A DNA stretch of 64,000 nt from an uncultured Alphaproteobacteria bacterium (lineage in GTDB: Bacteria > Pseudomonadota > Alphaproteobacteria > Rs-D84): assembly GCA_944392815.1 (NCBI GenBank), contig CALXXY010000001.1, forward strand, positions 96,001 to 160,000. The letters are read 5' to 3'. The translations under genes were made by a program, and so were the position numbers. How positions within the stretch are numbered: position 1 is the first letter of the stretch; each line of letters opens with the position of its first letter. Positions 1 through 16,036 of this stretch are shown piece by piece. The notes below the pieces were generated by a model. That model made no database searches. It saw nothing but the letters and a program-made list of their open reading frames with translations, and was not told where the DNA came from.

Positions 1-1769
1 AATATGCAATATGATTGCAAATTTCCGCGCCCAACACGACCGCGCAACTGGTGCAACGCCGCCAGTCCAAAACGTTCTGCGTTTTCAATAACGATGATTG
101 TCGCACGGGGGACGTCTATGCCAACCTCGATAACCGTGGTGGCGACGAGTATTTTCATGTCGGAATTATCGTCTGCGAATTTGGCCATGACGGCGTCACG
201 CTGTTTTTTATCCATTTGGCCGTGTACCAGACCCGCATGCGGAAATATTTTTTTCAATTCATCAAAACGCGCATTAACAGCGGTTAAATCCGATACTTCG
301 GATTCCATAACCAATGGACATACCCAAAACACTTTGGCCCCAGAATCAATTTGCAATTTCAATCGCGCAATTAATTCGCCAACGCGCGCAATCGGCAATT
401 TTGTCGTGATAATGGGTAATCGGCCGGCGGGCTTTTCATTTATAATCGACACGTCCATATCGCCGTATATTGTCATGGACAGCGTGCGCGGAATCGGCGT
501 TGCGGACAGTGCCAACAAATCTGGATTTGCGCCCTTGGCACGTAATGATTCGCGCTGGGAAACGCCAAAGCGATGTTGTTCGTCCACGATAACCAATCCC
601 AAATCTTTGTATTCCACATCGTCGGAAAACAGCGCATGCGTGCCGACAACTATTTTCGTACGCCCGGAACGCAATGATACCAATTTTTCACGGCGGGGGG
701 CGCCCTTGTCCCGGCCGGTCAGGATATCGCACACCAATCCCATTTTATCGCACATGGGTTTTATTTTTGCATAGTGTTGTTGCGCCAGTGTATCCGTTGG
801 TGCCAGCAATGCCGTTTGCGCACCTGATTCCGCCATTTTTACTGCGGCCGCCAATGCGACGATCGTTTTACCACTGCCCACGTCGCCCTGGACCAGGCGC
901 ATCATGGGCACATCGCGCGACATATCGTCAAATATTTCACGCAGCGTACGCATTTGCGCCCCGGTTAATTCAAACGGCAATGTGGCGTAAAATTTTCGCA
1001 TTAAATCATGTTTTTGTGGCCGCACAGTGCGACGATTGCGAACGTCCATGCGATTACGGCGGCTGATAACTATGGCCGATTGATGTGCCAACAATTCCCA
1101 ATACGCCAATTTTACAACGTACTGGGAATTCGGTAATAAATCATCGCCTGATTCTGGATAATGCACATGACGCAAAGCATCGAAAAATTCGCGCACGTTT
1201 GAATCAGGTTCCCCATTTATTTTTTCGGGCAATATGTTAAAAATCTGGTCGCGAACATTGGCAAATGTTTTTTGGGTTAACCCTTCGCCTGATGGATAGA
1301 TTGCCTGGATTGACGGGATTTTATCCGCATTTTGCATTTCTTCGATAAAATCAGGGTGATTAATTGTCGGGCGCGTGGTGCGTTCCAATTTTCCACTGAC
1401 CATGCGCCATTCGCCAATCGGTAATTTTTTCAGCCAATAATCTAAAAAATTCACATTGAAAAATTGAATGACGACACTGTTGCCCATTTTATCGTTGCAG
1501 ACAATCTGGGTCGGGCGACGATGACCACGAAACGCCCCGCCCGCCCGATGGGATTTGACCAATAACGGAATTGTTATAACATCGCCCGGTTGTGCCGCGT
1601 CCACGTTTTCAGTAATTTCGCGTGCACGAACGTATGCCGGCGTGTGCAACAAAAAATCCAACACACGCCGCCCCCCCAGGACGTCTGCAAATCGCGCGGC
1701 CAAAACAGGACCAACGCCCTTGATAAATTGCAAATCTGTGTTCAAAAATTCAAATAATTCACGTTTCAT
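1..1769 (-). CDS. recG: ATP-dependent DNA helicase RecG (3' end runs off the window)
   Basis: Not in the ORF track because it is truncated. Minus-strand translation from the ATG at 1769 (MKRELFEFLNTDLQFIKGVGP...) contains VVGTHALF, VIVDEQHRFGVSQR, LSATPIPRTL and ATTVIEVGIDVP motifs. Confidence 0.93.
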   Translation of the reverse strand, partial: MKRELFEFLNTDLQFIKGVGPVLAARFADVLGGRRVLDFLLHTPAYVRAREITENVDAAQPGDVITIPLLVKSHRAGGAFRGHRRPTQIVCNDKMGNSVVIQFFNVNFLDYWLKKLPIGEWRMVSGKLERTTRPTINHPDFIEEMQNADKIPSIQAIYPSGEGLTQKTFANVRDQIFNILPEKINGEPDSNVREFFDALRHVHYPESGDDLLPNSQYVVKLAYWELLAHQSAIVISRRNRMDVRNRRTVRPQKHDLMRKFYATLPFELTGAQMRTLREIFDDMSRDVPMMRLVQGDVGSGKTIVALAAAVKMAESGAQTALLAPTDTLAQQHYAKIKPMCDKMGLVCDILTGRDKGAPRREKLVSLRSGRTKIVVGTHALFSDDVEYKDLGLVIVDEQHRFGVSQRESLRAKGANPDLLALSATPIPRTLSMTIYGDMDVSIINEKPAGRLPIITTKLPIARVGELIARLKLQIDSGAKVFWVCPLVMESEVSDLTAVNARFDELKKIFPHAGLVHGQMDKKQRDAVMAKFADDNSDMKILVATTVIEVGIDVPRATIIVIENAERFGLAALHQLRGRVGRGNLQSYCI

Positions 1770-1836
1770 ATACTATAAAATTAGTCAAATTCGACACATT
1801 TTGCAATCGATTTCGTTGTTTGCACCAAATACCGTT

Positions 1837-2097
1837 TTATTGTATCACTGCGGTTTTTATCAGGGCGACGTCTTCGCGGATTGTGTCGATTTTTATTTGC
1901 AACTGCCCCAGGCCTGTTTCCAATATCGTTGTGCGATTTTCCAACGCTGTCAGGCGGTTGTCCGCGCGGTGCAGTTCATCTATTGATGAATCCTGGCGCG
2001 CGGCCCAATATATTACGCCCGCGATGAATACGATTAAAAACCAACTGTTGCGTAAAAAATCCAACAATCCCATTACACTGTTGGATTGTGATGTCAT
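1837..2097 (-). CDS. Small membrane protein with one TM helix and a coiled coil; possible holin or lysis accessory at the end of the phage-like operon
   Basis: Hydrophobic stretch WFLIVFIAGVIYWAA followed by a heptad-like region; start overlaps the stop of the upstream gene. Confidence 0.55.
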   Translation of the reverse strand: MTSQSNSVMGLLDFLRNSWFLIVFIAGVIYWAARQDSSIDELHRADNRLTALENRTTILETGLGQLQIKIDTIREDVALIKTAVIQ

Positions 2098-2291
2098 TAT
2101 TTCCCCCGTTGTATCATGTTTTCAATTTGATGTACCAGTGCACGTTGGGCTTCGATTCCGCGCAGTTCTGCGTCGGTGGCGTTCGGACCCAATGTACGTT
2201 CGATTGTAATTTTGCGCAAATGTTGTAATACCATCGCGCCGGCTGCAGTACTGAAAGTGCGCGCATAATTTTGTTCCAAATCTTTGTTCAT
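2097..2291 (-). CDS. Small podophage protein typically found downstream of the portal (Bbp19-like)
   Basis: YARTFSTAAGAMVLQHLR...LRGIEAQRALVHQI resembles the small protein encoded next to BPP-1/T7-like portals; translationally coupled to the portal gene. Confidence 0.65.
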   Translation of the reverse strand: MNKDLEQNYARTFSTAAGAMVLQHLRKITIERTLGPNATDAELRGIEAQRALVHQIENMIQRGK

Positions 2292-3526
2292 AATATATTC
2301 CCCTGGGTCAAAGTTTCTGCCATTGTCATTTTTGTAATCGGTGCGATGTATTTTAATTCTGCGTCGCTGTGCAGTGTGATTTTTTCAATCACGCCACGGC
2401 GCGATAAAATCTGCAGCCCGCGTTCCACCAATGGGTGAATAAACTCGTGCAACAGTCGCCCGTATGTCGCGCCCAGAATTCTGGCCATGTCTGCATTACG
2501 CGCCAGGATTTCTGTGGCGGTCATTTCTTTTTCAGACAGCAATCCCAATCTGTCGGCCAATAATGTGTGACGGATACGATCACGCAAATCAGTCAATATA
2601 ATTTGTGATACATCGAAATTCGCCCCGGACGATAATGGCGTCAGTCCTGATGAACCGACGGCTTTTGGTATGATGGCGCCTGGTGTCAGGTTTATATTAG
2701 ACAAATTTATCACGCCGTCATCGTCGGCCTGCCATATGCCAGACACGGCGATTGTTGCGTTTTTCAAAACCAGTTCCACAACTTTGTTGGCTGTTTTTAT
2801 ATCCGGCAATGCGCGCAGCACTGGGCCACGGCCGTATTGTTCACCACTGGCCACGGACCAGCGAAATATTATGTATGGATTTGTTTCGAATGTGCCGGTT
2901 GCGACAATGTTATTTTCCAATTCGCCGCCGACGTCCAACCATGCTGTAAAATCCGATCCGACCAAACTTTGCACCAGGCGCAACTGTGTTTCTGGGTCTG
3001 ATTTTATTGTATCGCGCAAATTTGATGGTGGCGTCCAATTAGGATATTTTTCCAATACCTGGCGTGCGGACATGGTGGCCGTATGAAATACTGCACCCGG
3101 CAAAATGGCCAGGTCGCGCATAGGAATCGCGGTAAACGAAAACGCAGACGCGGCACCAATCGGATTTTCCGCCATAAACAGGCATGCCGTGCCCAGCACT
3201 ATCAAATCCATATAGCATTGATGGATTGTGGTATAAAAATTAGAATCGTTCAGATTCGCACGCAATGCCGCACAGGCCGCAGTGGCGTCCGGGGAATCCG
3301 CACTTTCGGGCACCAATGATACCCACAGTGATTCTGGTGGCGTCAGCAACGAATAAATAGATGCCGCCAAATTATCGGCTGCGTCCGCGGCGGTGGCATC
3401 GAATACCAATGCTGCGTCGTCATCAGATGTTGGCATTGTATAACGTTGGGCCATGTCCCATCTGTTCAGCCATGGTGTACGCATATCCAATGCGCGACGA
3501 TACATTTGTTGTAAATTTTTTTGCAT
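2288..3526 (-). CDS. Podovirus-type head-to-tail connector (portal) protein
   Basis: Motifs FDATAADAADNLAASIYSLLTPP, FRWSVASGEQYGRGPVLRALPDIKTAN and MTATEILAR match T7 gp8-like portals. Start reassigned to MQKNLQQ (3526), preceded by AAAGGT. Confidence 0.88.
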   Translation of the reverse strand: MQKNLQQMYRRALDMRTPWLNRWDMAQRYTMPTSDDDAALVFDATAADAADNLAASIYSLLTPPESLWVSLVPESADSPDATAACAALRANLNDSNFYTTIHQCYMDLIVLGTACLFMAENPIGAASAFSFTAIPMRDLAILPGAVFHTATMSARQVLEKYPNWTPPSNLRDTIKSDPETQLRLVQSLVGSDFTAWLDVGGELENNIVATGTFETNPYIIFRWSVASGEQYGRGPVLRALPDIKTANKVVELVLKNATIAVSGIWQADDDGVINLSNINLTPGAIIPKAVGSSGLTPLSSGANFDVSQIILTDLRDRIRHTLLADRLGLLSEKEMTATEILARNADMARILGATYGRLLHEFIHPLVERGLQILSRRGVIEKITLHSDAELKYIAPITKMTMAETLTQGNIL

Positions 3527-3551
3527 GTTTATATACCTTTTGGTTGATGGT

Positions 3552-4400
3552 TTATATTTTGAAATTCGTGTTTGCATTAAAAATTTTTGGGGTGCGCCCA
3601 ATCGGGTGCACTGGCGTTGGAACGGCCGATACAGCGCCCGCGACTGCGTCCAGGCCATCGTCGTGACCAATTGTGCCGCTGGGCGTCCAACCCAGCATTT
3701 CTGCCAATAATGGTGTTGATTGAATACGCGTGTGCGCATGCAGGCGGCCGGACGTTAAAACAGGTTCAATTGCGTCCAGAATTCTGGTTTCTTTTTTCCA
3801 ATGGTTAACCACATTTTGAATCGTTATGGTTATGTTTTTTCGTGCCGACACGTCCCGCATTATTTCCGGCAACGCATTGCCAATGCCGTTTGTTTCTATG
3901 TTTATTCGGCGCATGCCATGGCGCTGCATAAATTCCAGCACCATTTCGCATTGGCGTGCCAGTGGGTGTAATTCGTCGTCTGGCACCAATAAATATACGA
4001 TGTCGTGCACGAATATATGTCGCGTTTTATCATCGCGATATATCAATGCGCATACACTGCCGTCGGAATTTTTACGCCCGGTGGACGGATCCCAATACAT
4101 TGTCGCGCCAGTGATTGTATATTCGCCAATGCGCGCGGTATGCACATTAAAGTCATCGTTGTACATACGCAATGCGTCTGGATCCAATTTCGCCCTGTCG
4201 GGGGCAATAAATTCCAACATCATTTGTGCAGAAAAATATCGCGCCCCGACCGCATTACGCAGTTCGTCTATGCGCGCAGGCGGAAATAATTCCGGCCAGG
4301 CGGGCGTGCCGTCTGGGGAAATTATCGGTATTTTTAATTCACGATATCCCCGCAAAAAAGGCGTTGAAAAACTAAAATTTTTATATACCATATCTGACAT
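3552..4400 (-). CDS. Terminase large subunit, C-terminal part (RNase H-like nuclease domain)
   Basis: PAWPELF, FSAQMMLE, YWDPSTG...SDGS, IETNGIG, KETRILDAIEP and HDDGLDAVAGA are TerL C-terminal motifs. The start at 4400 or 4391 is uncertain. Confidence 0.82.
   Translation of the reverse strand: MSDMVYKNFSFSTPFLRGYRELKIPIISPDGTPAWPELFPPARIDELRNAVGARYFSAQMMLEFIAPDRAKLDPDALRMYNDDFNVHTARIGEYTITGATMYWDPSTGRKNSDGSVCALIYRDDKTRHIFVHDIVYLLVPDDELHPLARQCEMVLEFMQRHGMRRINIETNGIGNALPEIMRDVSARKNITITIQNVVNHWKKETRILDAIEPVLTSGRLHAHTRIQSTPLLAEMLGWTPSGTIGHDDGLDAVAGAVSAVPTPVHPIGRTPKIFNANTNFKI
4364..4391 (+). promoter_or_regulatory. Sigma70-like promoter for a leaderless dnaB transcript
   Basis: TTGAAA-16 nt-TACCAT, then 7 nt to the ATG at 4399; no Shine-Dalgarno sequence. 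Confidence 0.55.
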
Positions 4401-5952
4401 GGACTTTACCCCGAAAACATTGCCGAATAATCTGGAGGCCGAACAGGCCGTTCTGGCCGCGGTGTTAATGAACAACCGCGCGTTGGAACGTGTGTCTGAA
4501 TTTCTGCGACCGGAACATTTTTCGCACCCTGCGCACCAGGAAATTTACAAATTGGCCGAACGGCAATTTGCCGCCGGAATACCGTTTGATATCATCACGG
4601 CCAAAAACTATCTGGATCAACAGGGCGTGTTGGAATCTGTGGGTGGCGTGGAATATCTGACGCAATTGGCGTCTGCGGGCGCAACCGTGGTGAACGTCGA
4701 ACAATACGGGCGCATAGTTTATGAAAACGCCATGCGACGCGAATTAATCAACCTGGGGCAATCCATTACCGATGCCGCTTTTGTCGAGGATTTGGATAAT
4801 CCTGTCACTGCACAAATCGAAACGGCCGAACAAAAATTATTTGAAATGGCGTCGACCGGCATTTCTGAACGCGAGGTTGCACCCATATCCACCGCATTAC
4901 AGGACGCATTGAAAGAGGCCGAAATCGCATACAAGGCCGATGGACAACTGTCTGGGTTGACAACTGGGTTGACCGCGTTGGATAAATCCATCAGTGGTCT
5001 GCACCATTCCGATTTGATTATTATTGCCGGTCGTCCCGCAATGGGAAAAACCACGCTGGCGATGAATATCGCGTTTAATGCCGCGAATGCTATTTTATAC
5101 GGTCGCGCCAACGAACGGTACAAAGGCGCCGTGGTGTTTTTCAGTTTGGAAATGTCAAAATCCCAATTGGCGGCGCGTGTGTTATCGTCGCAATCGAAAA
5201 TTCCTGCGTCTGCCATGCGCGAAGGGTCACTGACCGACGAAGATTTCCTGAAAATGTCACAGTATGCCGATGCTATTAGCAAAGTGCCTTTGTACATTGA
5301 TGATACGCCTGGAATGTCTGTGCCGATGTTGCGGACACGCGCGCGTCGTTTGGCACGCAAATGTGGCGGCATTGCGTTAATCGTAATTGACTATTTGCAA
5401 TTGATGACGTCACCCGGTGGCAAAAACAAGGATAATCGTGTCCAGGAATTATCCGAAATCACGCGCGGTCTGAAAATGCTGGCCAAGGAACTGGATGTGC
5501 CTGTTATTGCCCTGTCCCAGTTGTCGCGCAGTGTTGAATCGCGCGATGACAAACGGCCCCAGTTGTCTGATTTGCGTGAATCTGGGTCCATCGAACAGGA
5601 CGCCGACATTGTTATGTTTACATATCGCGAAGAATACTATCTGGAAAATCGCGACCCGTCACAGCGCATTTCCGGCAATGCCAACGAAAAAATTATCGAA
5701 AGTTTCCAAAAACGTTTGGAACGCGCACGTGGCAAAGCCGATGTGATTATCGGGAAAAATCGTCATGGACGGCCTGAAACTGTGCACATGGCATTTTTCG
5801 GCGATTACAGTTTGTTTGACAATCTGGAAGAAACCAATGCCCGCGGCGAAAATGATTTCAATAATCCGACCGAGGGTATGCCTGATGTCGATATGTCTGA
5901 ACAGCCAACGCCGATTGATGCGGACGCCATTCCAGACGATATGCCGCTGTAA
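4399..5952 (+). CDS. dnaB: Replicative DNA helicase DnaB
   Basis: LPNNLEAEQAVLAAVL N-terminus, IIAGRPAMGKT Walker A, IVIDYLQLM, ALSQLSR and LRESGSIEQDAD. The real start is MDFTPK (4399); the ORF-track extension is antisense to terL. Confidence 0.96.
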   Translation: MDFTPKTLPNNLEAEQAVLAAVLMNNRALERVSEFLRPEHFSHPAHQEIYKLAERQFAAGIPFDIITAKNYLDQQGVLESVGGVEYLTQLASAGATVVNVEQYGRIVYENAMRRELINLGQSITDAAFVEDLDNPVTAQIETAEQKLFEMASTGISEREVAPISTALQDALKEAEIAYKADGQLSGLTTGLTALDKSISGLHHSDLIIIAGRPAMGKTTLAMNIAFNAANAILYGRANERYKGAVVFFSLEMSKSQLAARVLSSQSKIPASAMREGSLTDEDFLKMSQYADAISKVPLYIDDTPGMSVPMLRTRARRLARKCGGIALIVIDYLQLMTSPGGKNKDNRVQELSEITRGLKMLAKELDVPVIALSQLSRSVESRDDKRPQLSDLRESGSIEQDADIVMFTYREEYYLENRDPSQRISGNANEKIIESFQKRLERARGKADVIIGKNRHGRPETVHMAFFGDYSLFDNLEETNARGENDFNNPTEGMPDVDMSEQPTPIDADAIPDDMPL

Positions 5953-6022
5953 ACATTTTATGCTTGCCAAACGCATCTAAATTGACTAAAATTTTTGTCA
6001 AGAAATTCCAAGGAGATTTGCG

Positions 6023-7030
6023 ATGGCCCAAGAAGAAATAATTTTCCCAAATAATATCAGAAATATTCGTTTGGCCAATGGCATGAAAATGACTGAATTG
6101 GCACGCCAGGCAAATTTATCGCTGTCGGCGGTATCCAAAATCGAAAAAGGTGTACGCCGTTTAAATCAAAAACAATTATTGAATATTTGTAATATTTTGG
6201 GTTGCAAATTATCCGATATTTTTATCAAGGAATCTGATGACGTTGCCGGCCAATGGCAAAGCGAAATCAAACGCCGTCTGAATGATAACGAAGACAGTGG
6301 TCTGAAAATTTTTGGCAGCGGGCTGCGCAAAATTCGCCAACAGTCGGGCAAAACTATTGCCCAGGCCGCGGCCGATGCCGGTATGACATTGTCTGTGTAT
6401 CATAAAATCGAGGTCGGCCAGCGCGAAATTTACGAAAACGAAATTGAACCTTTGGCCAAATCGTTTGGATATACTGCTGAATCCATGTTGGATAAAATCG
6501 CGACTTTGTATAAATCTGGCGAATTGAACAAGCAGATTAACAAGGTCAAAGAACGCGTTAAATCCGTATTGGTGCCGGGTAATCCATTGTCTGGAATCGA
6601 TGTGCACAGCAGTTTGTATGGTGCAAAATTATACGACAGCGCACGCAAAAAATTGGTGCCTGTGTTCGGTGCGCCATCGGGCAAAGCAATCGCGTTCAAA
6701 AAATCTGACAAAACAATGATTGTTGCCCCCATGCCGCTGGAGGGTCATTCTGGCATATATGCGATTATCCCGAATTCCAAACGGTTGGGCGGTTTTATCC
6801 CAGAACATGCCTATGTTTTTGCAGACGCCGACACGCCGGCCGCGATTGGTGATTTGGCTGTTTGCATTGATACAGATTTTAATTCGTTGGATTCAAATGA
6901 CACCGCTGTGGCACAAATCGCTGTTGTTCGCACAGATTCGCGGGGCAAAATTTACGGCCAGATTTCTGCGCCCGAAGAAAAAATCGTCGCCCCCACCATG
7001 CACAAGGTTGTCATGATTGTCATGGAATAA
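6023..7030 (+). CDS. Transcriptional regulator with two XRE-type HTH domains and a C-terminal S24-like region
   Basis: Two HTH units (IRNIRLANGMKMTELARQANLSLSAVSKIEKG; LRKIRQQSGKTIAQAAADAGMTLSVYHKIEVG); SD AAGGAG. Confidence 0.8.
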   Translation: MAQEEIIFPNNIRNIRLANGMKMTELARQANLSLSAVSKIEKGVRRLNQKQLLNICNILGCKLSDIFIKESDDVAGQWQSEIKRRLNDNEDSGLKIFGSGLRKIRQQSGKTIAQAAADAGMTLSVYHKIEVGQREIYENEIEPLAKSFGYTAESMLDKIATLYKSGELNKQINKVKERVKSVLVPGNPLSGIDVHSSLYGAKLYDSARKKLVPVFGAPSGKAIAFKKSDKTMIVAPMPLEGHSGIYAIIPNSKRLGGFIPEHAYVFADADTPAAIGDLAVCIDTDFNSLDSNDTAVAQIAVVRTDSRGKIYGQISAPEEKIVAPTMHKVVMIVME

Positions 7031-7057
7031 TTCCATAACCCCAGGGAGAGAGCACAC

Positions 7058-7732
7058 ATGAAAGCCAAAGCCAGCACAGTTGCACAGAAATTGTTAAATC
7101 TGTATCGCCAGGAACATGTTATTTTCGGCGGCTGGGCCGCGGTTAATCGCGTTTTTGTGGACGAAGCCACCGATGACGTAATACATGAATTGCGCAATTT
7201 GCCAACCGGGAAAAATCTGGTGCGGCATATTGAAAATTTACGCAGTGGCAAAACCCCCATGGATTCAATCGAACGCGAATTGTTGCCGTACGATGGATTG
7301 ATGGACGAAACTGTGGCAACGGTGCCTTTGACGGCCGCAGAATGGGCGGAATTGGAATCCGGTATTGATGCGTTCACAACCGACCAAAATGGACTGGACG
7401 AAATTCAACAATTAAATGTTGTAAAAAAATTCGGCGACCAATGGTTGGTGGCTATACGTGCTGCATTAAATGCCCGGCCTGATTTGTTGGAAAAATGGTC
7501 GGTTATCAACAAAACATATCGCGCGTATTATTTGTGGAAAGTGGCCAGTGATATGTTAACCCAGCCGCTGTCTGAACGTGCGCGCGCGCAATTACAGGCC
7601 GACATGCCCGAATACGAAACGTATTTGCCAATGTTTGGTGATGCCGGCAATGAATTGTTGGAAAAACTGCGTTCGTTTATTTCCACAACAATCCCCGATG
7701 AAACGAACGACGATGGCGTTGAATCCATTTAA
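7058..7732 (+). CDS. Hypothetical protein
   Basis: 224-aa ORF with a GGGAG SD, co-oriented with dnaB and the regulator; its stop overlaps the stop of the terminase ATPase gene. Confidence 0.75.
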   Translation: MKAKASTVAQKLLNLYRQEHVIFGGWAAVNRVFVDEATDDVIHELRNLPTGKNLVRHIENLRSGKTPMDSIERELLPYDGLMDETVATVPLTAAEWAELESGIDAFTTDQNGLDEIQQLNVVKKFGDQWLVAIRAALNARPDLLEKWSVINKTYRAYYLWKVASDMLTQPLSERARAQLQADMPEYETYLPMFGDAGNELLEKLRSFISTTIPDETNDDGVESI

Positions 7733-8331
7733 TCGTCTGTTGTTCTGTAAATAGTATCCAATGTGTGCGGTGTGCCGATATAAATCATTGTACCGGTCGG
7801 CGACAAAATAAAATCCAATTCGCGCAGACGTTCACGCAATGTTTCCCGTTTTTGCGATGTGTTGCTGGTGTTGGGAACCTCGACATCGTCACATATAATC
7901 AAATCCGATCGCAGACCAGTAATGTTGCCGTGAATGCCCTGGCATATGACAGACGGTTCACGAATGCCAACCGGGCGATTTACGGTTATACGGCCACTGG
8001 CCCATTCTTTTTTTACGTCCGGGATTAAATCGGCACACATTGGGTGATTTTCCAATATGTGCCGAATATGCGACACCATACGTGACGCCAGGCCGTTTTC
8101 CGCAGACAGGATTAAAATCCTGGTGCTGGGGCGCATATGCAACACACATGCTGCAAAAATGCCAACAACTGTGGATTTGCCAGAATGCCTGAACGCCATC
8201 AGCAATCCACGATGCGGTGCGTCATTTAACACCGACACCAAAAATTCCATGATTTTTTTGTGGTGCGCCGGTGTGGTTAATCCCAAAACTTGGTTCCATG
8301 CGTCCAGGAAATTATAAAATTCGGCCAGCAT
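7729..8331 (-). CDS. Terminase large subunit, N-terminal ATPase domain
   Basis: Walker A-like MAFRHSGKST, GNITGLRSDLIICDDVE (Walker B) and coupling motif IYIGTPH, as in T7 gp19-like terminases; ends about 10 residues after GTPH. Confidence 0.87.
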   Translation of the reverse strand: MLAEFYNFLDAWNQVLGLTTPAHHKKIMEFLVSVLNDAPHRGLLMAFRHSGKSTVVGIFAACVLHMRPSTRILILSAENGLASRMVSHIRHILENHPMCADLIPDVKKEWASGRITVNRPVGIREPSVICQGIHGNITGLRSDLIICDDVEVPNTSNTSQKRETLRERLRELDFILSPTGTMIYIGTPHTLDTIYRTTDD

Positions 8332-8336
8332 ATAAT

Positions 8337-8684
8337 TTAACCCAACAAATCGTCAAATTTATCCAATACCATTTGCAACAAATTTGGACGTGTGGCCCGA
8401 ATTTGTTTTAATTTTTCTGTGTTTGATTTACGTTTTTCGTCGTACGGTTTGGCGGTTTCTGATTTCAATCGCGCCAATACTGCACTGGTACTCATACTGC
8501 GGCCAGACGCCCCTGACGCACCGTATTTGGCACGTTGGGTTGCCAGTGTTTTTTTGACCAGATTCGTTTTTTCACGTGCGTCGGACGCCATGTCCGCCAA
8601 TATTTTTTGACGTTCATTTTCGGCCTGTTTTTTGGAATCGTTATATCCCAATACGGTCGTGACATCTGATACCAATTGTCCCAT
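8337..8684 (-). CDS. Putative virion or internal protein of the phage-like cluster
   Basis: Located between the tail nozzle gene and terL; helical, with an ATQRAKYGASG motif reminiscent of small podophage virion proteins; AAGGA SD. Confidence 0.55.
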   Translation of the reverse strand: MGQLVSDVTTVLGYNDSKKQAENERQKILADMASDAREKTNLVKKTLATQRAKYGASGASGRSMSTSAVLARLKSETAKPYDEKRKSNTEKLKQIRATRPNLLQMVLDKFDDLLG

Positions 8685-8705
8685 TTTTATTTCCTTTGGT
8701 TAAAT

Positions 8706-10421
8706 TTATATTGTGTAATTTCCGTATACGCCAACAGACAAAATCGTTGTTGGCAACTGTTCGTTGCTGGATATTGTCCACGGCGCAGTTATGCAATTTT
8801 GCTGGGTTCCCAGTATATTGACTGATACGTCACCACTGTATCCAGGGGCGGCGGCGTCATATATATTATCTGGGAACGGGGCACGCATGCCGTTTATGAA
8901 CAAAGTTTTTGTATCCAGCGTACGCGCCACTATTTTTCTGATACGCAATTTACGCGCGTTATGGCCAGATGCCCGCACAGGCAACGCTGATGCTGTATAT
9001 GAAAAATCATATTGCGACGCATCAGATAATGCTGTATCGGAAAAAGTTTCCAAATAACACGTGTCGCCACGCGCAACAACCACGTATGTTTTGCCCGCTA
9101 TGGTGGCCACTGATTTAAATGTGCCGTCGGTTTTATATCGCGCCCATGCAGAAATGCCCAGCGCGGAATTTTGATTCAGTACCGCCATATTGCCGTCTGT
9201 CATTACAACAAACAATTGACGCGTGTTTTCGTTATACGATATGTCCGTGGGCGTGTTCATTAAATGTTTTGCCTGGGTACATAAATCACGCGCATTGTAA
9301 TTTTCACCCAATGCGTCCAGCGTTAATTCGCGAATGTCCTGTTCGGTGGCGGAAATAAATACTGTGGCACCTTCGATTTTTTGCGGCGGCAAATAACGCG
9401 TGGCAACGCTGCCGACTGATGTGTGTTGTTTGATTTCAATTGACGATGGGGTCAAAGGTTTGCTGGATATCGCCCATTCGCCTGAATTAGTCAAAATTTG
9501 CAAATTGTCACTGCTGACCAATGTGCAGATTTGTTGGCGCTGTTGCGATAATAATGTGACGAAAATAGATTCGTCGTCCAGGCCCGTGCCAACATTAAAA
9601 TTATTATACTGGCCCACCCGCGACGCCCATATACCACTGGGCCACGATGGGGTTCCGCCGAAAATCAATCTGTCTTGGTGATATGTGACACTGCACGGCC
9701 AACCGCGACGGTCGCTGAATGCGGATTCGTACCAATCTGTGACGGGGTCGGACGGCAAATTATATTGCGAATTTGTATACGCGTATACTACAGTCGGACT
9801 GACGTATTCCGTGATTCGCCACTGATTATTTAACAACAACAGGTACCCACCAACAGAATTTTGTGTCCAAAACGCTTTGTTGGTGGTAAATGTTGCCGTG
9901 TTATTGCCCGCGCTGTTTGCGGTCACGGTAATATTAATGGTCGCTGCGTCATCGAATTTCATGAATGGCATGTTTAATGTCATATCTGAATCATTGCGTT
10001 TGAATTCGAACGGAACCAATTCGAAATTCACAGATCCCATTTGTAAAATACAGGGCTGATATTTTGGGTGAACGAATATCATCGTGCCATTTCGCTGGGC
10101 ATATTGAATTTTCGGATAATCATCAAAATCCCATTCGAATAATAAATCACATATAACCGTTGCACCGTCGTATATCAACATATGCCCATCAGTCAATGCC
10201 AATATATAATTTTCTGTTTCACTGACTGAAAATGGTATCAGGCGCGCAGACGATGTTAATGTGTCAACTGTGGCCAAACCGCGGCGCCGGCGCAGTCCAC
10301 CACCAGCGATAACGTCCATATTTTCCAAATACGACAATCCGTTTAAATTATCGCGTGCGTAAAATTCCGGGGAAACTTCGCCGTCTGCGAACGAGTTTTG
10401 GGTTTTAATAAAATCTGTCAT
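8706..10421 (-). CDS. Podovirus tail tubular protein B / nozzle (T7 gp12- or P22 gp10-like)
   Basis: N-terminal QNSFADGEVSPEFYAR...LENMDVIAGGGLRRRRG and GWPCSVTYHQDRLIFGG...WASRVG motifs; position after the adaptor gene. Confidence 0.8.
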   Translation of the reverse strand: MTDFIKTQNSFADGEVSPEFYARDNLNGLSYLENMDVIAGGGLRRRRGLATVDTLTSSARLIPFSVSETENYILALTDGHMLIYDGATVICDLLFEWDFDDYPKIQYAQRNGTMIFVHPKYQPCILQMGSVNFELVPFEFKRNDSDMTLNMPFMKFDDAATINITVTANSAGNNTATFTTNKAFWTQNSVGGYLLLLNNQWRITEYVSPTVVYAYTNSQYNLPSDPVTDWYESAFSDRRGWPCSVTYHQDRLIFGGTPSWPSGIWASRVGQYNNFNVGTGLDDESIFVTLLSQQRQQICTLVSSDNLQILTNSGEWAISSKPLTPSSIEIKQHTSVGSVATRYLPPQKIEGATVFISATEQDIRELTLDALGENYNARDLCTQAKHLMNTPTDISYNENTRQLFVVMTDGNMAVLNQNSALGISAWARYKTDGTFKSVATIAGKTYVVVARGDTCYLETFSDTALSDASQYDFSYTASALPVRASGHNARKLRIRKIVARTLDTKTLFINGMRAPFPDNIYDAAAPGYSGDVSVNILGTQQNCITAPWTISSNEQLPTTILSVGVYGNYTI

Positions 10422-10436
10422 GTTGTACCCCCGATA

Positions 10437-10958
10437 TTAAAATCGAACGTTTATCAGTGAAAAATTTTCTATATTTTCATGGGCGGCCGACGATGCGCTG
10501 TCTATGAATTTCGCAGATTGTAATTCTGTTTCATACAAAGCCGCCAGCATGCGAAACACGTTTTGGTCGCCTGTTAAAGGAATGCAAAATTCCATTGCCA
10601 ATTTTGTTGCCGCCAAAGACGTAAAATATCCCGGAAATTTATCCGGCGCGACGCGGACTGTGGCGTTTATAGTAATATTTTCCGATGGCGATATTATTTC
10701 GTTGCCGATAATTTCACCACTGCATTTTAATATGCGCAAACATTCCGCCGGAATTATAAAATTTCCATCGCTGTTTTTGTTCAGTTTGAATTTTCGTGTG
10801 GCAAATCGCCATGGGTGCATGGCCAGCAATGTATCCACCACAGAATCATACAAAGTGCGCGACAATTGCGCAGCCGGTGTATCGTCTGTTAATGACTGGA
10901 TCGGCCGTTCCCCCAATTTCAGCAATGCCAAAGAACACAAATCTATTTTCGTTTGCAT
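10437..10958 (-). CDS. Podovirus tail tubular protein A / head-tail adaptor (T7 gp11-like)
   Basis: IDLCSLALLKLGERPIQSL...LLAMHPWRFA motif typical of adaptor proteins. Confidence 0.8.
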   Translation of the reverse strand: MQTKIDLCSLALLKLGERPIQSLTDDTPAAQLSRTLYDSVVDTLLAMHPWRFATRKFKLNKNSDGNFIIPAECLRILKCSGEIIGNEIISPSENITINATVRVAPDKFPGYFTSLAATKLAMEFCIPLTGDQNVFRMLAALYETELQSAKFIDSASSAAHENIENFSLINVRF

Positions 10959-10981
10959 AAATTCCCCCATAGGTCACAAAT

Positions 10982-11009
10982 AAAAATCCGGGGCAACAAC
11001 CTGCCCCGG
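10982..11009 (-). terminator. Intrinsic terminator between the capsid genes and tail genes
   Basis: On the minus strand, CCGGGGCA-ggttgt-TGCCCCGG followed by ATTTTT. Confidence 0.7.
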
Positions 11010-11019
11010 TATAAAAAAG

Positions 11020-11247
11020 TTATGACAATGCGCCAACCGTGATACTGTCACCAACTGTGACTGTTTTAATAGACGTTGCGTCCGACGCGTTTATGATAAC
11101 CATATCGCCCGTATTCATCAATGTTTTCACATCATCAAAATATCCAGACGCGCCGATTGTCGCCATCGTTTCGGCTGCGGCATAATGCCACAATGTAAAT
11201 CCGTTTGCATACGCAATTACGGACAGATTTTTATTTTGAAACGCCAT
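11020..11247 (-). CDS. Small capsid-associated protein (decoration-like, inferred)
   Basis: LSVIAYANGFTLWHY motif; directly follows the capsid gene; AAAGGA SD. Confidence 0.6.
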   Translation of the reverse strand: MAFQNKNLSVIAYANGFTLWHYAAAETMATIGASGYFDDVKTLMNTGDMVIINASDATSIKTVTVGDSITVGALS

Positions 11248-11279
11248 TGATTTTTTCCTTTGTATTTATTGGTTGTTAA

Positions 11280-12098
11280 TTAATCTTTGCATTTGATACG
11301 AACGATACCAGTGTCGTCAATCATGACTGCGCCCTGGGACATGCTGTTGCTGATGAAATGAGCCGCCCGTTCGCCGTGCCATGAAATATCTGTTTTTACT
11401 TCCTGGCCACAGGCATGACCGATGCTGGTTGCGTGATACATGAAACAGTCACGCTTGGACGTGTCCGACAACGGTAAATCGTTGTACAGAACCCATGTTA
11501 TGCCCAACCACTGTTTGGACGCCCCGCCAGATATCAATGGCAGATTGTCGCCCACGTAATCGCCGGATACAAATTCATCTATCCCCAGCAATTCATTCCA
11601 TTGGTGCACGCCAATGACTGCAAATCTGCGGCCATCATCGGGAACATCGTTTTCATTTAACACTTCCAATGCGGACAAAATTAAATCTTTGGTCAGACCG
11701 GTTGAATAATCGCCCACAGATGTTGTGGCGGACGACATTGCGCCAACAATCAATTCGTCTGTTTTGCGCCCCAGTGCATACGCACCAGCAGACGCAACAA
11801 CACGACGTTCGTCAATGTTGGTTTTTAATTCGTCCAATGCGTCAACCCAATCACCCGCATAATAGTCCTGCAAAATACATTCCACAGGTTCGTGATTCAA
11901 ATTCATCACAGGCACAATACCGTGACGCGATTTTGTGCTGGCGGTGCCACGACCAACCTTTTGGAAAGTGGTGGACGCACCGACAACCCCAGATTTGCTG
12001 CGTACCGTGGCACGCAGTTTTGTGCCCATTTGCTGATATGCCAAATGGACGTCGGCTTCGAACTGTTTGACAAAGACCTGATCAACTGAAACAGACAT
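11280..12098 (-). CDS. Major capsid protein, podophage type
   Basis: FVKQFEADVHLAYQQMGTKLR, AGAYALGRKTDELI and DVPDDGRRF match the BPP-1/T7-like capsid family; strong SD AAAGGAAA. Confidence 0.85.
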   Translation of the reverse strand: MSVSVDQVFVKQFEADVHLAYQQMGTKLRATVRSKSGVVGASTTFQKVGRGTASTKSRHGIVPVMNLNHEPVECILQDYYAGDWVDALDELKTNIDERRVVASAGAYALGRKTDELIVGAMSSATTSVGDYSTGLTKDLILSALEVLNENDVPDDGRRFAVIGVHQWNELLGIDEFVSGDYVGDNLPLISGGASKQWLGITWVLYNDLPLSDTSKRDCFMYHATSIGHACGQEVKTDISWHGERAAHFISNSMSQGAVMIDDTGIVRIKCKD

Positions 12099-12298
12099 TA
12101 TTAATTTCCTTTTGCTGTAAAAAATAAAAAAAGACGTAATAAAAAATTACGTCGGTAAATTTTATGATTATGGTTGTGCACATAAACATATGCGCCATAT
12201 ACATAAAACAAATTGGGTCCGTTATCGGATTGTCCAAAAAAATATTCAATCAGACGAAATAAAATCTGATTGAATATTTTATGCGGGGGCAATTAAAA

Positions 12299-12319
12299 AT
12301 CCCCGGAATTCCGGGGATT
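12299..12319 (-). terminator. Terminator after the histone-like gene
   Basis: Palindrome ATCCCCGGAATTCCGGGGAT followed by a T-run on the minus strand. Confidence 0.6.
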
Positions 12320-12322
12320 ATA

Positions 12323-12676
12323 TTATTTTTTCTTTGCACATGCTTTTTTTACCGGTTTTTTCGCAACAACTTTTTTTGCGACCGGTTTTTTCGCTGCTAC
12401 TTTTTTAACAGCAACTTTTTTTGCAGGTGCTTTTTTAGCAACAACTTTTTTTGCAACTGGTTTTTTCACCGCTGCTTTTTTAGCAACTGGTTTTTTCGCT
12501 GCAACTGGTTTTTTAACTGCTACTTTTTTAGCAACAGGTTTTTTTGCAACAACTTTTTTTGCTGCTGGTTTTTTGGCAAGTGCTTTTTTAGCAACTGGTT
12601 TCTTTGCAACCGGTTTGGCAGCCGGCTTTTTCGCGGCGGCTTTCTTTGCGGCTGGTTTCAAGAATGTGAATGCCAT
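12323..12676 (-). CDS. Histone H1-like (Hc2/AlgP-type) Lys/Ala/Pro/Val-rich DNA-binding protein
   Basis: 117 aa made almost entirely of xxAKK pentapeptide repeats; SD AAGGAG before MAFTFLK. Confidence 0.8.
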
Positions 12677-12780
12677 TCTTCTCTCCTTTTTATTTTTTGG
12701 ATAGAACAAATTTCTTTTGTTCTTACTTTTATTTTATATGAAAGAAAAAAAATAGTAAAGAAGAAAGTGCATTTTTTTCA

Positions 12781-13437
12781 TCACGAATATAATTTTTTAA
12801 ATCCATTTTCAATTTTGCGAACGTATTCTGGATCCATATCGCGCCAATATTTTGGATCGCGCATCATGCGACGCAGTTCATCATCTGTTAAATTTTTTTG
12901 TGGCGCATCATTGGTTTCAATCGATGGTTCCATCGTTTGCATCATCGCGTAAATGCTGCGGATTCCCTGGGGTGTAGCGCACAGAGTTTCAAACGCATCA
13001 CGTGGTAAATATTTTTCGCCGAACGAATTTATTGCATTTAATGCGTCACACATTTTTTGTTCATCGCCGAAAAAATTTTTTAATTCACTGATTGCATTTG
13101 TTTCATTTTGCACATCAAATAATTCTGATAACACAGGTGTTAAAAATTCTTCTGCGATACGATAAATTTGTTCAACCTGGGACGAAGTTAATCCAATTTC
13201 AAAAAATTTTTCGCGCAACGATTCGTCATCAAACAATTCATTTGTCGGATATTCAGACGAATCATTTGGCACACCAATTGCACGATTAAATTTGGCACGT
13301 GTGTCTGCATCGCTGTCTGCGTTTGGCACAGAAACCATCGTTCCGATTTTCTTTTCCAATTCAGAATATGATTTTAATAATGCGGCTGTGTTTAATGTAC
13401 CGTCTTTATTCAGAAATTTTTCTGGAATGTTTTCCAT
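12781..13437 (-). CDS. Capsid assembly (scaffolding) protein, T7 gp9-like
   Basis: IPEKF...LLKSYSELEKKIG N-terminus and MMRDPKYWRD..PEYVRKI C-terminus are typical of podophage scaffold proteins; acidic and helical. Confidence 0.78.
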   Translation of the reverse strand: MENIPEKFLNKDGTLNTAALLKSYSELEKKIGTMVSVPNADSDADTRAKFNRAIGVPNDSSEYPTNELFDDESLREKFFEIGLTSSQVEQIYRIAEEFLTPVLSELFDVQNETNAISELKNFFGDEQKMCDALNAINSFGEKYLPRDAFETLCATPQGIRSIYAMMQTMEPSIETNDAPQKNLTDDELRRMMRDPKYWRDMDPEYVRKIENGFKKLYS

Positions 13438-13627
13438 TTGTGTTCCTTTTGTTTTCGCTGGATTTACGCAGAAAATAAATTCCGCCCAATGTAAATATTG
13501 ATTGCAGCATTGTGAATATATCTGTATCACCAACCAAATACGCGCCCAGTGCTGATAATATTCCAATGCTTGATATTATGTATGTTCTGTGTCCGGATAA
13601 AAATCCGCCACTGATAATTTTTTTCAT
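13406..13627 (-). CDS. Holin-like small membrane protein
   Basis: GHRTYII followed by two short hydrophobic helices and a basic tail; lies next to the hydrolase gene. Confidence 0.55.
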   Translation of the reverse strand: MKKIISGGFLSGHRTYIISSIGILSALGAYLVGDTDIFTMLQSIFTLGGIYFLRKSSENKRNTNGKHSRKISE

Positions 13628-13644
13628 AACCTGTCCATTTTGTA

Positions 13645-14055
13645 TTACAGATAAAACAACAATCCATCTATGTCGGCGATATACCCACGCGCAGTCGCCC
13701 AATCTGGTATCAATCCATCATGGTGAAAACGCGTCGCGCCATTGCAACAATCCGGCAACAGGCCATGCAACATTCTGCGTGCCACGCGCACACACATTTG
13801 AAATCCGGAATCTGTCGACGTCACAGACAATAATTCATTATCCGGTGATGCAGGATTTAACACTGGGAATAAATCTGCGTCCAATGCGACGTCCACAACA
13901 CATCTGTGCGTGGCCACCGCGGAATTATAAATCATGGACGTTAACGCTTCGACCACACGCAATGATACAGCGTGTGTTTCTGCATATACTGTACGCGCAA
14001 TTTTATACGCCACAGATTGCAATTCATCTGTGTTTTTAATTAATGTCAATTGCAT
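13645..14055 (-). CDS. Cell-wall hydrolase (SleB/Hydrolase_2-like), divergent
   Basis: IARTVYAE (catalytic Glu position) and GATRFH...PDWA...GLLFY motifs. Confidence 0.7.
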   Translation of the reverse strand: MQLTLIKNTDELQSVAYKIARTVYAETHAVSLRVVEALTSMIYNSAVATHRCVVDVALDADLFPVLNPASPDNELLSVTSTDSGFQMCVRVARRMLHGLLPDCCNGATRFHHDGLIPDWATARGYIADIDGLLFYL

Positions 14056-14208
14056 GTGCTGAATGCCCCTGTGATTGTTGAAATAAAAAATGGGCCGCAA
14101 CAAAGTGCGACCCAAAATAAAAATCCGCCGGTTTCCCGCGGACATACTTTTACCTGTTCATGCGTTCTATAGTATCATATTTGAACACAAAAGTCAAGAA
14201 AATAATTT

Positions 14209-14889
14209 TTACATGCTGATTTCGTCACCATAGGCCAGCATATAACGCGACCCATTTCGCAGCACCAGCGCACCATTTTCATTTATTCCAATCAGTTCAA
14301 CATTATCACCGCGATATTTTACGATTTTATTTAATCCTGTGGCCAAATCCATCCAGCGCGCGCGCACCAATGGAAAATCTGCACGCCGCCATTTGTCCAA
14401 ATTTTTCATAAGTTTATTTAACAATTCCGTTTTATCCACAGACGCATAATTATCCAATTTTGTCGTTTTATACTGTGGTACGGTCGGATTTGTTTTTATA
14501 TTAATTCCAATACCCACAATGACAAAACGTGCGGCGTATTCGATTAAAATCCCACACACCTTGGCCCCGTCTATTAATATATCGTTTGGCCATTTAATTT
14601 TGGGGTGAATGCCGAACGCAATCAATGTTTCCGCCACCGCCACCGCAACAACATATGACAGACGCGGATCACGTTCGTCGCATTCAAAAATAAAACTGAC
14701 GTACAAATTACCATGATGCGACACCCATGTGCGTTGATACCGACCGCGGCCCGCGGATTGCGCCTGGGCCATGATGACGGTATGATCGCGGGCCTGGCCC
14801 ATGGCGACCAGTTCCAGTGCATATGTTTGCGTGCTGGGGATTTTATCAAACGAAATTAATTTATATCCGGCCAAGTTTATATACCCCAT
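14209..14889 (-). CDS. birA: Biotin-[acetyl-CoA-carboxylase] ligase
   Basis: STQ, QSAGRGRYQRTW, IKWPNDILIDGAKVCGILIE and GIGIN motifs. Confidence 0.93.
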   Translation of the reverse strand: MGYINLAGYKLISFDKIPSTQTYALELVAMGQARDHTVIMAQAQSAGRGRYQRTWVSHHGNLYVSFIFECDERDPRLSYVVAVAVAETLIAFGIHPKIKWPNDILIDGAKVCGILIEYAARFVIVGIGINIKTNPTVPQYKTTKLDNYASVDKTELLNKLMKNLDKWRRADFPLVRARWMDLATGLNKIVKYRGDNVELIGINENGALVLRNGSRYMLAYGDEISM

Positions 14890-15283
14890 CTGAATTTATT
14901 ATGAAATCACGCCCGAACGTTTTGCGCAATTGATATATAGACGTATCCACTGTATGCGTTGTGGCGTTCGGGGAATATCCCAACGCGGTCCGCAAATCAG
15001 ACGCCGACATTCCGCCCGTTTTATGCAACAGCAACACTATTTGCGCCTGGGTATACGGCAAATGAACGCTGCGGCCAAAAATCTGGTGCAGTTGTTGAAT
15101 GTTGCCATCAATTGCGTTTTGTATGGCGGTTTTAATCGCGATTGGCGTGGCCGGCATATTTATGTCCAGCCCATCAAAATCCACGCATGTGGCGTCCATG
15201 ACGTCGGACACAGTCGCACCGAATTCAGATAAAATCTGGCGCCAAACTGGGTCTGATGAAAAAATTTTTATTCCGTTTAACAT
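14861..15283 (-). CDS. Protein with a C-terminal OmpR-type winged-helix domain
   Basis: LGYSPNATTHTVDTSIYQLRK...GVYKL matches the Trans_reg_C pattern; no intact receiver domain. Confidence 0.7.
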   Translation of the reverse strand: MLNGIKIFSSDPVWRQILSEFGATVSDVMDATCVDFDGLDINMPATPIAIKTAIQNAIDGNIQQLHQIFGRSVHLPYTQAQIVLLLHKTGGMSASDLRTALGYSPNATTHTVDTSIYQLRKTFGRDFIINSDGVYKLGRI

Positions 15284-15625: not shown

Positions 15626-15798
15626 TTTCTCTCTCCTGTGGTTAAATTTGGGGCATATGCTCGCTGTGGGACATATGTCTGGTATTGATTTTATTCCAGT
15701 TCACACCCACAGACAACAAGGACCATTTCCTATTTCCGCAGAAATCCGGGGTTTCTGTTCCTAAAAATAACACTAAAAAATAAATTTGACAAAAATAC

Positions 15799-15827
15799 TT
15801 GACAAATAGCAATTTATGTATTACATT
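15799..15827 (+). promoter_or_regulatory. Sigma70-like promoter of the putative sRNA
   Basis: TTGACA-17 nt-TACATT, with no credible downstream CDS on the + strand. Confidence 0.6.
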
Positions 15828-15833
15828 TCGATT

Positions 15834-16025
15834 CGTCAAAGGGGGCAACCCCTGCGGCTGGGTTGAAAAACCCATATTGGGGTTCAGGGATTCAGACTCC
15901 CTCCTACATTCTCTCTCCTCTGGACTCTGGACCCCAAATTCAGTTTAGAATGCCCATTTCTTTTTCTCCTTTCCTTCCTTTCGGGGCATTCGGAAACACC
16001 GGCGGGCAACCGCCGGCGTTTTTTG
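15834..16025 (+). ncRNA. Putative ~190-nt sRNA with pyrimidine-rich anti-SD loops
   Basis: Promoter, successive hairpins with CTCCT-containing loops, and a terminal GC-rich hairpin (CCGGCGG gcaa CCGCCGG) plus T-run. Confidence 0.6.
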
Positions 16026-16036
16026 TATTTATAAAA

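Follow-up and report, generated by a model that had tools for sequence, protein, structure and literature searches.

A large terminase gene carried as two separate genes in Candidatus Enterousia and its order Rs-D84: a probable ancestral fission within a T7-like cluster

A large terminase gene (terL) carried as two separate genes is found in the window analysed here, a stretch of 64,000 nucleotides (nt) from an uncultured alphaproteobacterium (positions 96,001 to 160,000 of contig CALXXY010000001.1, assembly GCA_944392815.1). The two genes, terL-N (7729–8331, minus strand) and terL-C (3552–4400, minus strand), belong to a T7-like cluster of phage genes and are separated by three plus-strand genes that include dnaB. 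This arrangement probably results from an ancestral fission that left a non-covalent, two-chain terminase in a cluster resembling a gene transfer agent (GTA). The window's genome is metagenome-assembled (927 kb in 18 contigs, 96.8% complete) and belongs to Candidatus Enterousia, a genus placed in the GTDB order Rs-D84 and described, in the available part of PMC12306168, as having genomes below 1 Mb with a coding density of about 90%, and as having lost most of its biosynthesis and probably depending on a partner for its way of life; phage genes are not mentioned for Enterousia in that part of the source.

The terL-N gene encodes 200 amino acids (aa) with Walker A, Walker B and GTPH motifs, and terL-C encodes 282 aa comprising the last beta-strand of the ATPase, its helices and an RNase H-like nuclease. 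The open reading frame (ORF) 7729–8331 ends in ...GTPHTLDTIYRTTDD*, 11 residues past GTPH, its last residues being TIYRTTDD before the stop; the likely start of terL-C is the ATG at 4400–4398, which is preceded by GGGGTAAAGTCC and opens a short new leader, MSDMVYKNFSFSTP, followed by the conserved FLRGYRELKIPII. In profile searches with PHROG 38 (terminase large subunit, 760 positions), terL-N covers positions 271–460 (E 2e-40) and the minus-strand ORF 3552–4475 positions 466–707 (E 3e-38), and Pfam recognises Terminase_6N (PF03237) in terL-N (25.5 bits for a cut-off of 22) and Terminase-T7_RNaseH-like (PF22530) in terL-C (36.4 bits for a cut-off of 27). On an intact relative of 471 aa (P0006), residues 7–200 align to terL-N residues 8–200 (54% identity) and residues 202–471 to residues 40–307 of the C-terminal ORF (36% identity); since the two pieces abut end to end on P0006, the cut lost no residue. 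An earlier note on this DNA had placed the pieces at these coordinates with the split after GTPH, and had claimed that both keep their catalytic motifs; the PHROG, Pfam and P0006 alignments agree with the former, and the latter is borne out by the catalytic columns checked in alignments of 10, 11 and 83 sequences. In alignments of up to 83 sequences, G51-K52-S53 (Walker A), D148-D149-E151 (Walker B) and G186-T187-P188-H189 are invariant in terL-N, as are D104, E169 and D247/D248/D251 in terL-C. Among the properties that define a large terminase, the ATPase motifs of the ASCE (additional strand, catalytic glutamate) type, the RNase H-like acidic residues and, in the model, the terminase fold are all present; both activities on one polypeptide are not, the two ORFs lying 3.3 kb apart.

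The arrangement recurs throughout the genus. The 80 closest loci, from Candidatus Enterousia or uncultured gut Alphaproteobacteria, share 73–87% identity over terL-N; 73 of them span terL-N to terL-C, and gene order and strands are identical in 72 of these 73, the remaining one (L058) failing only at the hypothetical gene of the intervening block, whose match holds a stop. One locus lies in a circular assembly of 958,618 bp (metaFlye, according to the record title), the right junction is bridged by contigs from the runs of three studies, and the left junction by contigs from two runs. Could the dnaB block have been wrongly joined into terL during assembly? A metagenome-assembled genome in this many contigs invites the question, and the earlier note had raised it; yet the common layout comes from many independent assemblies, one of them circular and built from long reads, and contigs of other studies bridge both junctions, which makes an artefact a practically negligible explanation.

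Selection was estimated from the ratio of non-synonymous to synonymous substitution rates (dN/dS; Nei-Gojobori, pairwise, as medians over pairs with dS between 0.05 and 1.5). The median is 0.118 for terL-N, from 209 usable pairs out of 3003, and 0.204 for terL-C, from 181 out of 2415, compared with 0.065 for dnaB, 0.077 for the portal gene, 0.079 for the capsid gene and 0.195 for tubular protein B, and with 0.08–0.25 for the measured cluster genes overall, all of these values being rough because dS is near saturation (medians about 1.35). The terL-N frame is open in all 80 genus loci, one of which (L101) is cut off within the gene where its contig stops; apparent stops in two others (L047 and L090) turned out to be natural stops lying 2–4 codons earlier.

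The breakpoint extends far beyond the genus. Among 61 genomes of the order (the window's own, G000, and 60 relatives, in six families; G, L and C numbers designate genomes, loci and contigs), terL-N was found in 53, including a weak match to another terminase in G046; the other 52 copies are open frames of 198–240 aa, the decayed G028 excepted. The terL-C gene was likewise found in 53 of the 61, with both pieces present in 51 and neither in 6; in the two genomes with terL-C only (G054 and G055), the contigs end at ftsZ, where terL-N would be expected. Both frames are kept across the six families at 31–52% protein identity, terL-N ends everywhere 2–8 residues past TIY/SIY, and every terL-C opens with an ATG of its own, placed a few codons ahead of FL.G..L(K/R)IP. 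The dnaB gene lies between the halves only in genus g1 (Enterousia) and is located elsewhere in the other families: in f2, f4 and f5, the halves are neighbours on a single strand with a spacer of 175–380 nt (L014–L018), and in f3, terL-N is followed by variable genes, ftsZ, portal and terL-C (L019–L023).

As the breakpoint is common to families in which dnaB is elsewhere, the dnaB block did not cause the split, and the wording of the earlier note, which had the gene split by this block, does not hold: the same breakpoint is found in every sampled Rs-D84 family having the gene. In the tree of terL-C, all 19 split forms fall on one side of a branch separating them from 39 intact ones (support of 88.8 in the Shimodaira–Hasegawa-like approximate likelihood ratio test, SH-aLRT), and in the tree of terL-N, a single clade of split forms is not rejected (approximately unbiased test, p = 0.37). 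Given the order-wide breakpoint and these trees, one ancient fission is the simplest reading, with the dnaB block coming later. The dnaB-regulator block is a later arrival specific to Enterousia.

Beyond Rs-D84, terL is intact in nearly all the genomes that have it. The search for longer proteins in which P0006 was found retrieved 950 at E values of at most 1e-5, and the best 120 of them, those listed, are mostly 468–510 aa long. In a sample of 300 other alphaproteobacterial genomes taken across the class, a terL homologue is present in 44 (45 of 301 when G000 is counted); among the 42 homologue-bearing genomes outside the order, 40 have frames of at least 436 aa, i.e. intact, and the two others comprise one gene broken by masked bases and one frame of 399 aa. 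The intact alphaproteobacterial terL, of which P0006 is the representative used here, is collinear with the split pieces to the residue and belongs to the same type of cluster; it differs in being a single frame, and no dnaB, ftsZ or small-RNA insertions were seen in the loci examined. The earlier note had considered that an intact terL in close relatives, together with relaxed selection here, might undo its reading; the intact genes lie outside the order and dN/dS is low.

Are the halves nothing more than functionless pseudogene relics of a decaying prophage? No integrase is found nearby, no replication genes are recognisable in the cluster, one species has deleted the cluster, and it looks incomplete, as was judged for the similar 'prophage region 2' of Hepatincola in the available part of PMC9992710. 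Decay is however very unlikely when set against frames that stay open across six families at such low identities with invariant catalytic residues, against dN/dS values of 0.12 and 0.20 for the two pieces, against terL-N copies open in all the genus loci once natural stops and a contig end are recognised, and against the expectation that dead genes would not last in genomes that are smaller than 1 Mb and have a coding density of about 90% (available part of PMC12306168). As judged from the sequences, the 'fixed gene fission' proposed in the earlier note is well founded: the near-uniform layout of the genus loci, the order-wide breakpoint and the low dN/dS all point to a fixed fission under purifying selection, and to neither decay nor misassembly.

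The intervening block comprises dnaB (4399–5952, plus strand; replicative helicase with DnaB and DnaB_C domains, E 3e-101), a regulator with two helix-turn-helix domains (HTH_3 in Pfam; 6023–7030, plus strand) and a gene for a hypothetical protein of 224 aa (7058–7732, plus strand) that matched no family and for which the ESM Atlas returned nothing. These domain matches agree with the content and strand that the earlier note had given for the gap. The dnaB start codon (4399–4401, plus strand) overlaps that of terL-C (4400–4398, minus strand) by 2 nt in the palindrome CATG at 4398–4401, and the stop codons of the hypothetical gene and terL-N overlap in TTAA at 7729–7732; because of these shared junctions, the block measures 3334 nt and contains exactly three genes. 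A direct check of the codons verified the shared CATG start for 42 of 73 related loci, and the remaining loci listed in that check carry the GGGGTAAARTCCATGTC string 15–18 nt further upstream, which gives a longer leader. The dnaB gene was found as a single copy in the window's genome, and the regulator is a core gene of the order, single-copy in 60 of 61 genomes, some of them without terL; the block is therefore a piece of the host core genome. As the earlier note had pointed out, the element is thus tied to an essential gene, being interleaved, in Enterousia, with the genome's only dnaB. The regulator and the hypothetical gene were also considered as regulators specific to the cluster, a role that was rejected because the regulator is a core gene that outside Enterousia lies mostly far from the phage-like cluster and is kept in genomes that do not have terL; the hypothetical gene accompanies it in some f3 genomes.

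No direct or inverted repeats flank the intervening block beyond short imperfect matches, and a mobile-element insertion was ruled out by this lack of meaningful repeats together with the lack of a recombinase nearby. A scan of 3400–8800 for promoters and terminators remained at chance level (13 promoter-like matches for 9.9 expected, and 10 terminator-like for 9.3). In Enterousia, terL-C must have its promoter and ribosome-binding region inside dnaB, and dnaB its own inside terL-C, and judging from this overlap, reciprocal interference between the expression of the two genes is possible.

Phage terminase genes that are interrupted and then repaired by introns or inteins are known, and phage LL-H reportedly carries an intron in terL. 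'Fractured genes' whose products are rejoined by split inteins have been described as well (PMC2677866, in the part available), and a group I or group II intron, trans-splicing or a split intein could in principle mend the gene here. No intron family was found in Rfam at E values of at most 1 in any of the five short spacers or across window positions 1–15000, where only transfer RNAs and noise appeared, and the repeat and Rfam scans thus came out empty, as the earlier note had reported for flanking repeats and for intron or intein signatures. The halves of split inteins measure about 100 and 35 aa, for which there is no room, since the lengths of the terL pieces sum to that of the intact protein with 0–1 residue between them. 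The genes that intervene are on the opposite strand here and include portal and ftsZ in f3, and each terL-C starts with an ATG of its own, all of which makes rejoining extremely unlikely. The likeness to intron- or intein-split and fractured genes is that the DNA carries a packaging or replication gene as two pieces with intervening sequence; the difference is that those are mended by splicing, and that neither a signature nor space for it is found here.

The position of the break in the protein was read from an AlphaFold model of the intact P0006 (mean predicted local distance difference test, pLDDT, of 90.4). The model shows a strand at residues 176–185, GTPH, a coil at 186–206, a strand at 207–211 and helices at 228–246, and its RNase H-like sheet starts near residue 265. 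Among solved structures, it is closest to the TerL of PhiV-1 (8dgc_E, E 1e-27), followed by T4 gp17, HK97, D6E and Sf6, and it matches the isolated ATPase domain of P74-26 over 273–281 columns. According to this model, the break (residue 200) is therefore inside the ATPase domain, about 60–70 residues before its end, in a coil between two core strands rather than at the linker that joins ATPase to nuclease. The division into an ATPase half and a nuclease half made in the earlier note thus needs correction, terL-C also carrying the last core strand and two helices; and as the ATPase sheet is incomplete without terL-C, control of terL-C would gate the whole motor and not only cutting, contrary to the separately regulated nuclease half that the note had imagined.

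The two window proteins were then co-folded, with alignments of 83 rows each and three controls. The complex of terL-N and terL-C scored 0.89, against 0.00 for the best control, a pass that may be memory because single-chain terminases (8dgc, 4bij) have been solved. Of 80 solved complexes, 58 reach the score mark used, as do 2 of 110 mismatched pairs. The runs have at least 91% of contacts in common, with a partner pLDDT of at least 79, and the tightest modelled contacts are between terL-N residues 41–47 (the strand leading into Walker A) and terL-C residues 19–26 (the LKIPI strand). The predicted interface residues fall in conserved segments of both alignments. On these models, a two-chain enzyme is plausible, as is the two-subunit motor that the earlier note had suggested.

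The history and mechanism that we regard as probable would run as follows. A T7-like cluster, long resident in the chromosome, would have had its terL divided in a single event in the Rs-D84 ancestor, at a surface coil of the ATPase fold 11 residues past GTPH, and the halves would thereafter have been two separately selected genes, free to be moved apart. Their proteins would be translated separately and would reassemble without a covalent bond, like a split enzyme, with the first strand of terL-C (LKIPI) slotting beside the Walker A strand of terL-N, so that the ATPase is completed and the nuclease tethered. The pair would then make up one protomer of the packaging motor of a GTA-like particle; assembly in the cell, motor activity and the function of such a particle are what we infer.

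Several observations weigh against this account, in addition to the roughness of the dN/dS values and the solved structures that may explain the complex score. The complex model indicates that the pieces can rebuild a terminase fold, which does not show binding in cells, and no small terminase was recognised. In G041 (f6, 99% complete), terL-N is kept along with portal, capsid and tube genes, and terL-C was not found anywhere in the genome, even by profile, so that terL-N may persist alone. G028 has lost most of the cluster and both of its terL pieces are truncated, and the system is therefore dispensable in that species. In-frame stops were flagged in four terL-N copies (G001, G028, G042 and G060), the one in G042 being about 25 codons from the N-terminus. 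Contigs from a metatranscriptome library lie on both terL pieces, and one of them (4135–4562) covers both start codons; such contigs cannot show transcription, strand or level, and the uncovered parts of the stretch carry no meaning in that run.

Some details of these two genomes may be added. On contig C64 of G041 (L128), the genes run capsid, 75-aa protein, tube A, 115-aa protein, terL-N and portal, with tube B and the scaffold-like gene further along. On contig C1 of G028 (L127, 32000–51999), a terL-C stub (residues 4–72) and a terL-N stub (residues 80–200), the latter fused to capsid residues 1–192, flank an intact block of dnaB, regulator and hypothetical gene.

Do the two pieces still work together? 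They may have parted ways, terL-N serving as a packaging ATPase in the style of phi29 or in some other job and terL-C acting as an independent nuclease. The condition of G041 fits this, as do the differing transcription contexts of the halves between families and the faster evolution of terL-C (dN/dS 0.20 vs 0.12). Taken alone, however, terL-N would be without one core strand of its own ATPase sheet, which the models draw from terL-C; moreover, the pieces co-occur in 51 of the 61 genomes and are jointly missing in 6, both are truncated together in G028, and the interface residues fall in conserved segments of both. Loss of cooperation is therefore unlikely, and a two-chain terminase born of an ancestral fission is still the reading that we prefer.

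To our knowledge, every large terminase described so far is a single chain. The closest counterpart is the terminase of T7-like phages (gp19; TerL of PhiV-1 in 8dgc chain E; T7 model 4bij), which belongs to the same family and has the same fold. It differs in being one polypeptide, in place of the two genes found here that are cut in a coil within the ATPase domain. On 8dgc chain E (586 aa), terL-N aligns to residues 29–215 and the terL-C profile to residues 258–296 and 404–482; a search of PDB sequences with the single terL-C gave no match, the profile alone being matched. The alphaproteobacterial clade is about 90–110 aa shorter at its C-terminus than this chain (470–500 vs 586 aa). A split terminase gene with opposite-strand genes in the gap is also known from herpesviruses, in which the two exons of UL15 (ATPase-nuclease) flank UL16 and UL17; the UL15 exons are joined by mRNA splicing in the eukaryotic nucleus, and the split point is elsewhere. 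In the literature searched, neither a two-gene terminase like this one nor a phage-like cluster in Enterousia or Rs-D84 was found, coverage being partial and the supplementary tables of PMC12306168 and PMC9992710 being places where such genes could be listed.

The terL pieces are part of a cluster flanked by recG and other host genes, all members of which are on the minus strand. Next to recG, at the cluster end, lie two small conserved genes (86 and 64 aa, 1837–2291), followed by the portal gene (T7 gp8-type head-tail connector, about 2288–3526), whose start is uncertain, the Pfam match beginning at residue 74 of the long ORF 2288–3739. Beyond terL-C, the intervening block and terL-N come a conserved 115-aa protein just upstream of terL-N (8337–8684), a tail tubular protein B-like gene (8706–10421, PHROG 376), a tail tubular protein A-like gene (10437–10970, PHROG 394, with a weak Pfam Tube match), a conserved 75-aa phage protein (11020–11247, PHROG 18004), the major capsid protein (11280–12098, Phage_capsid_2) and a scaffold-like protein (12781–13566, start uncertain) that matches PHROG 3742 (unknown function) and is so assigned because in relatives it is placed between portal and capsid. 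A 128-aa protein (12323–12709, minus strand) rich in lysine and alanine, with AKKP/VAKK repeats, lies between the genes for the capsid and the scaffold-like protein; it is histone H1-like and is encoded by an AT-rich stretch (fraction of G and C about 0.35). Beside the scaffold-like gene, a 166-aa ORF (13645–14145, minus strand) has a weak endolysin-family match (PHROG 938, E 1.7e-4) and could be a lysis or cell-wall enzyme of the element.

Known here from its genes, this cluster resembles a gene transfer agent in profile. It shows long vertical residence under selection (six families, gene trees that group by family, low dN/dS) and its genes are spread over more than one locus, since a T7 tail-fibre N-terminal domain (PF03906, 26.2 bits for a cut-off of 25.2) is found on contig C7, the cluster being on C1. 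No recombinase is located near the cluster, the genome's four tyrosine recombinases all being far away, and no replication genes were recognisable in it, a result of no systematic search, the one for T7 RNA polymerase being uninformative because its control stayed silent. The tail-fibre-domain protein of the window's genome (336 aa; L126, 1495–2505, plus strand) lies between host-like genes, and in other Rs-D84 families a protein with a similar N-terminal sequence, as judged by eye, is found just upstream of terL-N.

We know of no T7-like GTA among those described in Alphaproteobacteria. In the parts of the sources available, the RcGTA-type agents, BaGTA (PMC3610622) and FpGTA (PMC12946183) are likewise chromosomal clusters of head, tail and packaging genes under selection; those agents have no replication or integration genes and sometimes occupy several loci, and the tail-fibre gene here is likewise on a separate contig; a two-gene terL is reported for none of them in those parts. 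Identity with BaGTA was ruled out, since a single gene for the terminase large subunit (1344 nt) is listed for that agent (PMC3610622, available part). The FpGTA of Faecalibacterium has been called the first podovirus-like gene transfer agent (PMC12946183, available part), and the 'prophage region 2' of Hepatincola, another reduced alphaproteobacterium, comprises 10 genes, has no attachment sites and occurs in each of the three strains; it is likened to the present cluster by description only, having been judged an incomplete prophage in a text whose available part does not mention a terminase (PMC9992710). The literature on T7- or podovirus-like GTAs in Alphaproteobacteria, covered in part and without supplements, yielded no description of this arrangement.

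A compact T7-like cluster is also found among host genes in other alphaproteobacterial families (L117, L119 and L121, with L118 and L120 in part), in genomes of 1.1 to 4.6 Mb. It comprises genes for portal, a scaffold-like protein, capsid, tube A and tube B, together with an unsplit terL of about 490 aa, and it may be an undescribed, class-wide domesticated element. A wider and distinctly more doubtful possibility is that a GTA or domesticated capsid machine derived from a T7-type podovirus has been inherited in many alphaproteobacterial lineages, that its ATPase became two-chained in Rs-D84 through a cut in the ASCE core, and that its CATG interlock with dnaB couples replication and packaging or makes them mutually exclusive; under this tentative scenario, the shared CATG in Enterousia would mean that transcription of terL-C and of dnaB must pass through each other. 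A link to random packaging of host DNA, which the earlier note had also evoked, is speculation.

How ATPase core, lid and nuclease communicate in terminases is an open mechanistic question, and a natural two-chain terminase, if true, would be a ready-made system for asking which parts need covalent linkage. Genomes that are smaller than 1 Mb and have given up most biosynthesis retain this 12-kb cluster of T7-like particle genes, interleaved with essential genes, dnaB here and ftsZ in a sister family, which argues for a useful domesticated function in these gut bacteria that depend on partners. An undescribed lineage of podovirus-type GTAs in Alphaproteobacteria may also be indicated.

Two further features were recorded. 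The ftsZ gene is single-copy in 22 of 24 genomes of the other five Rs-D84 families, and in f3, the sole ftsZ lies between terL-N and portal; no match to FtsZ (Pfam PF00091) was found in 37 Enterousia genomes (the window's own being 96.8% complete) or in G039 (f4), in a search whose control matched 13 of 14 known genomes. The other is a small-RNA-like gene at 15780–16030 (plus strand), with a promoter-like TTGACA box, two hairpins and a terminator, the hairpin loops being invariant, CU-rich and similar to an anti-Shine-Dalgarno sequence. Its fold z-score is -5.0, it is found at the same position in 61 Enterousia loci at 76–91% identity with compensatory changes in 17 of 43 consensus pairs, and its only match in Rfam is a weak one to CcsR1 (E 1.5). 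Similar CU-loop hairpins with a promoter-like box occur exactly in the spacer between terL-N and terL-C in f2, f4 and f5 (L014, 5694–5929; L015, 5867–6200; L016, 5233–5406; L017, 5274–5487; L018, 5160–5538), and the exact loop pattern of the window's element recurs in the L018 spacer; an element of this kind may have been involved in the original fission.

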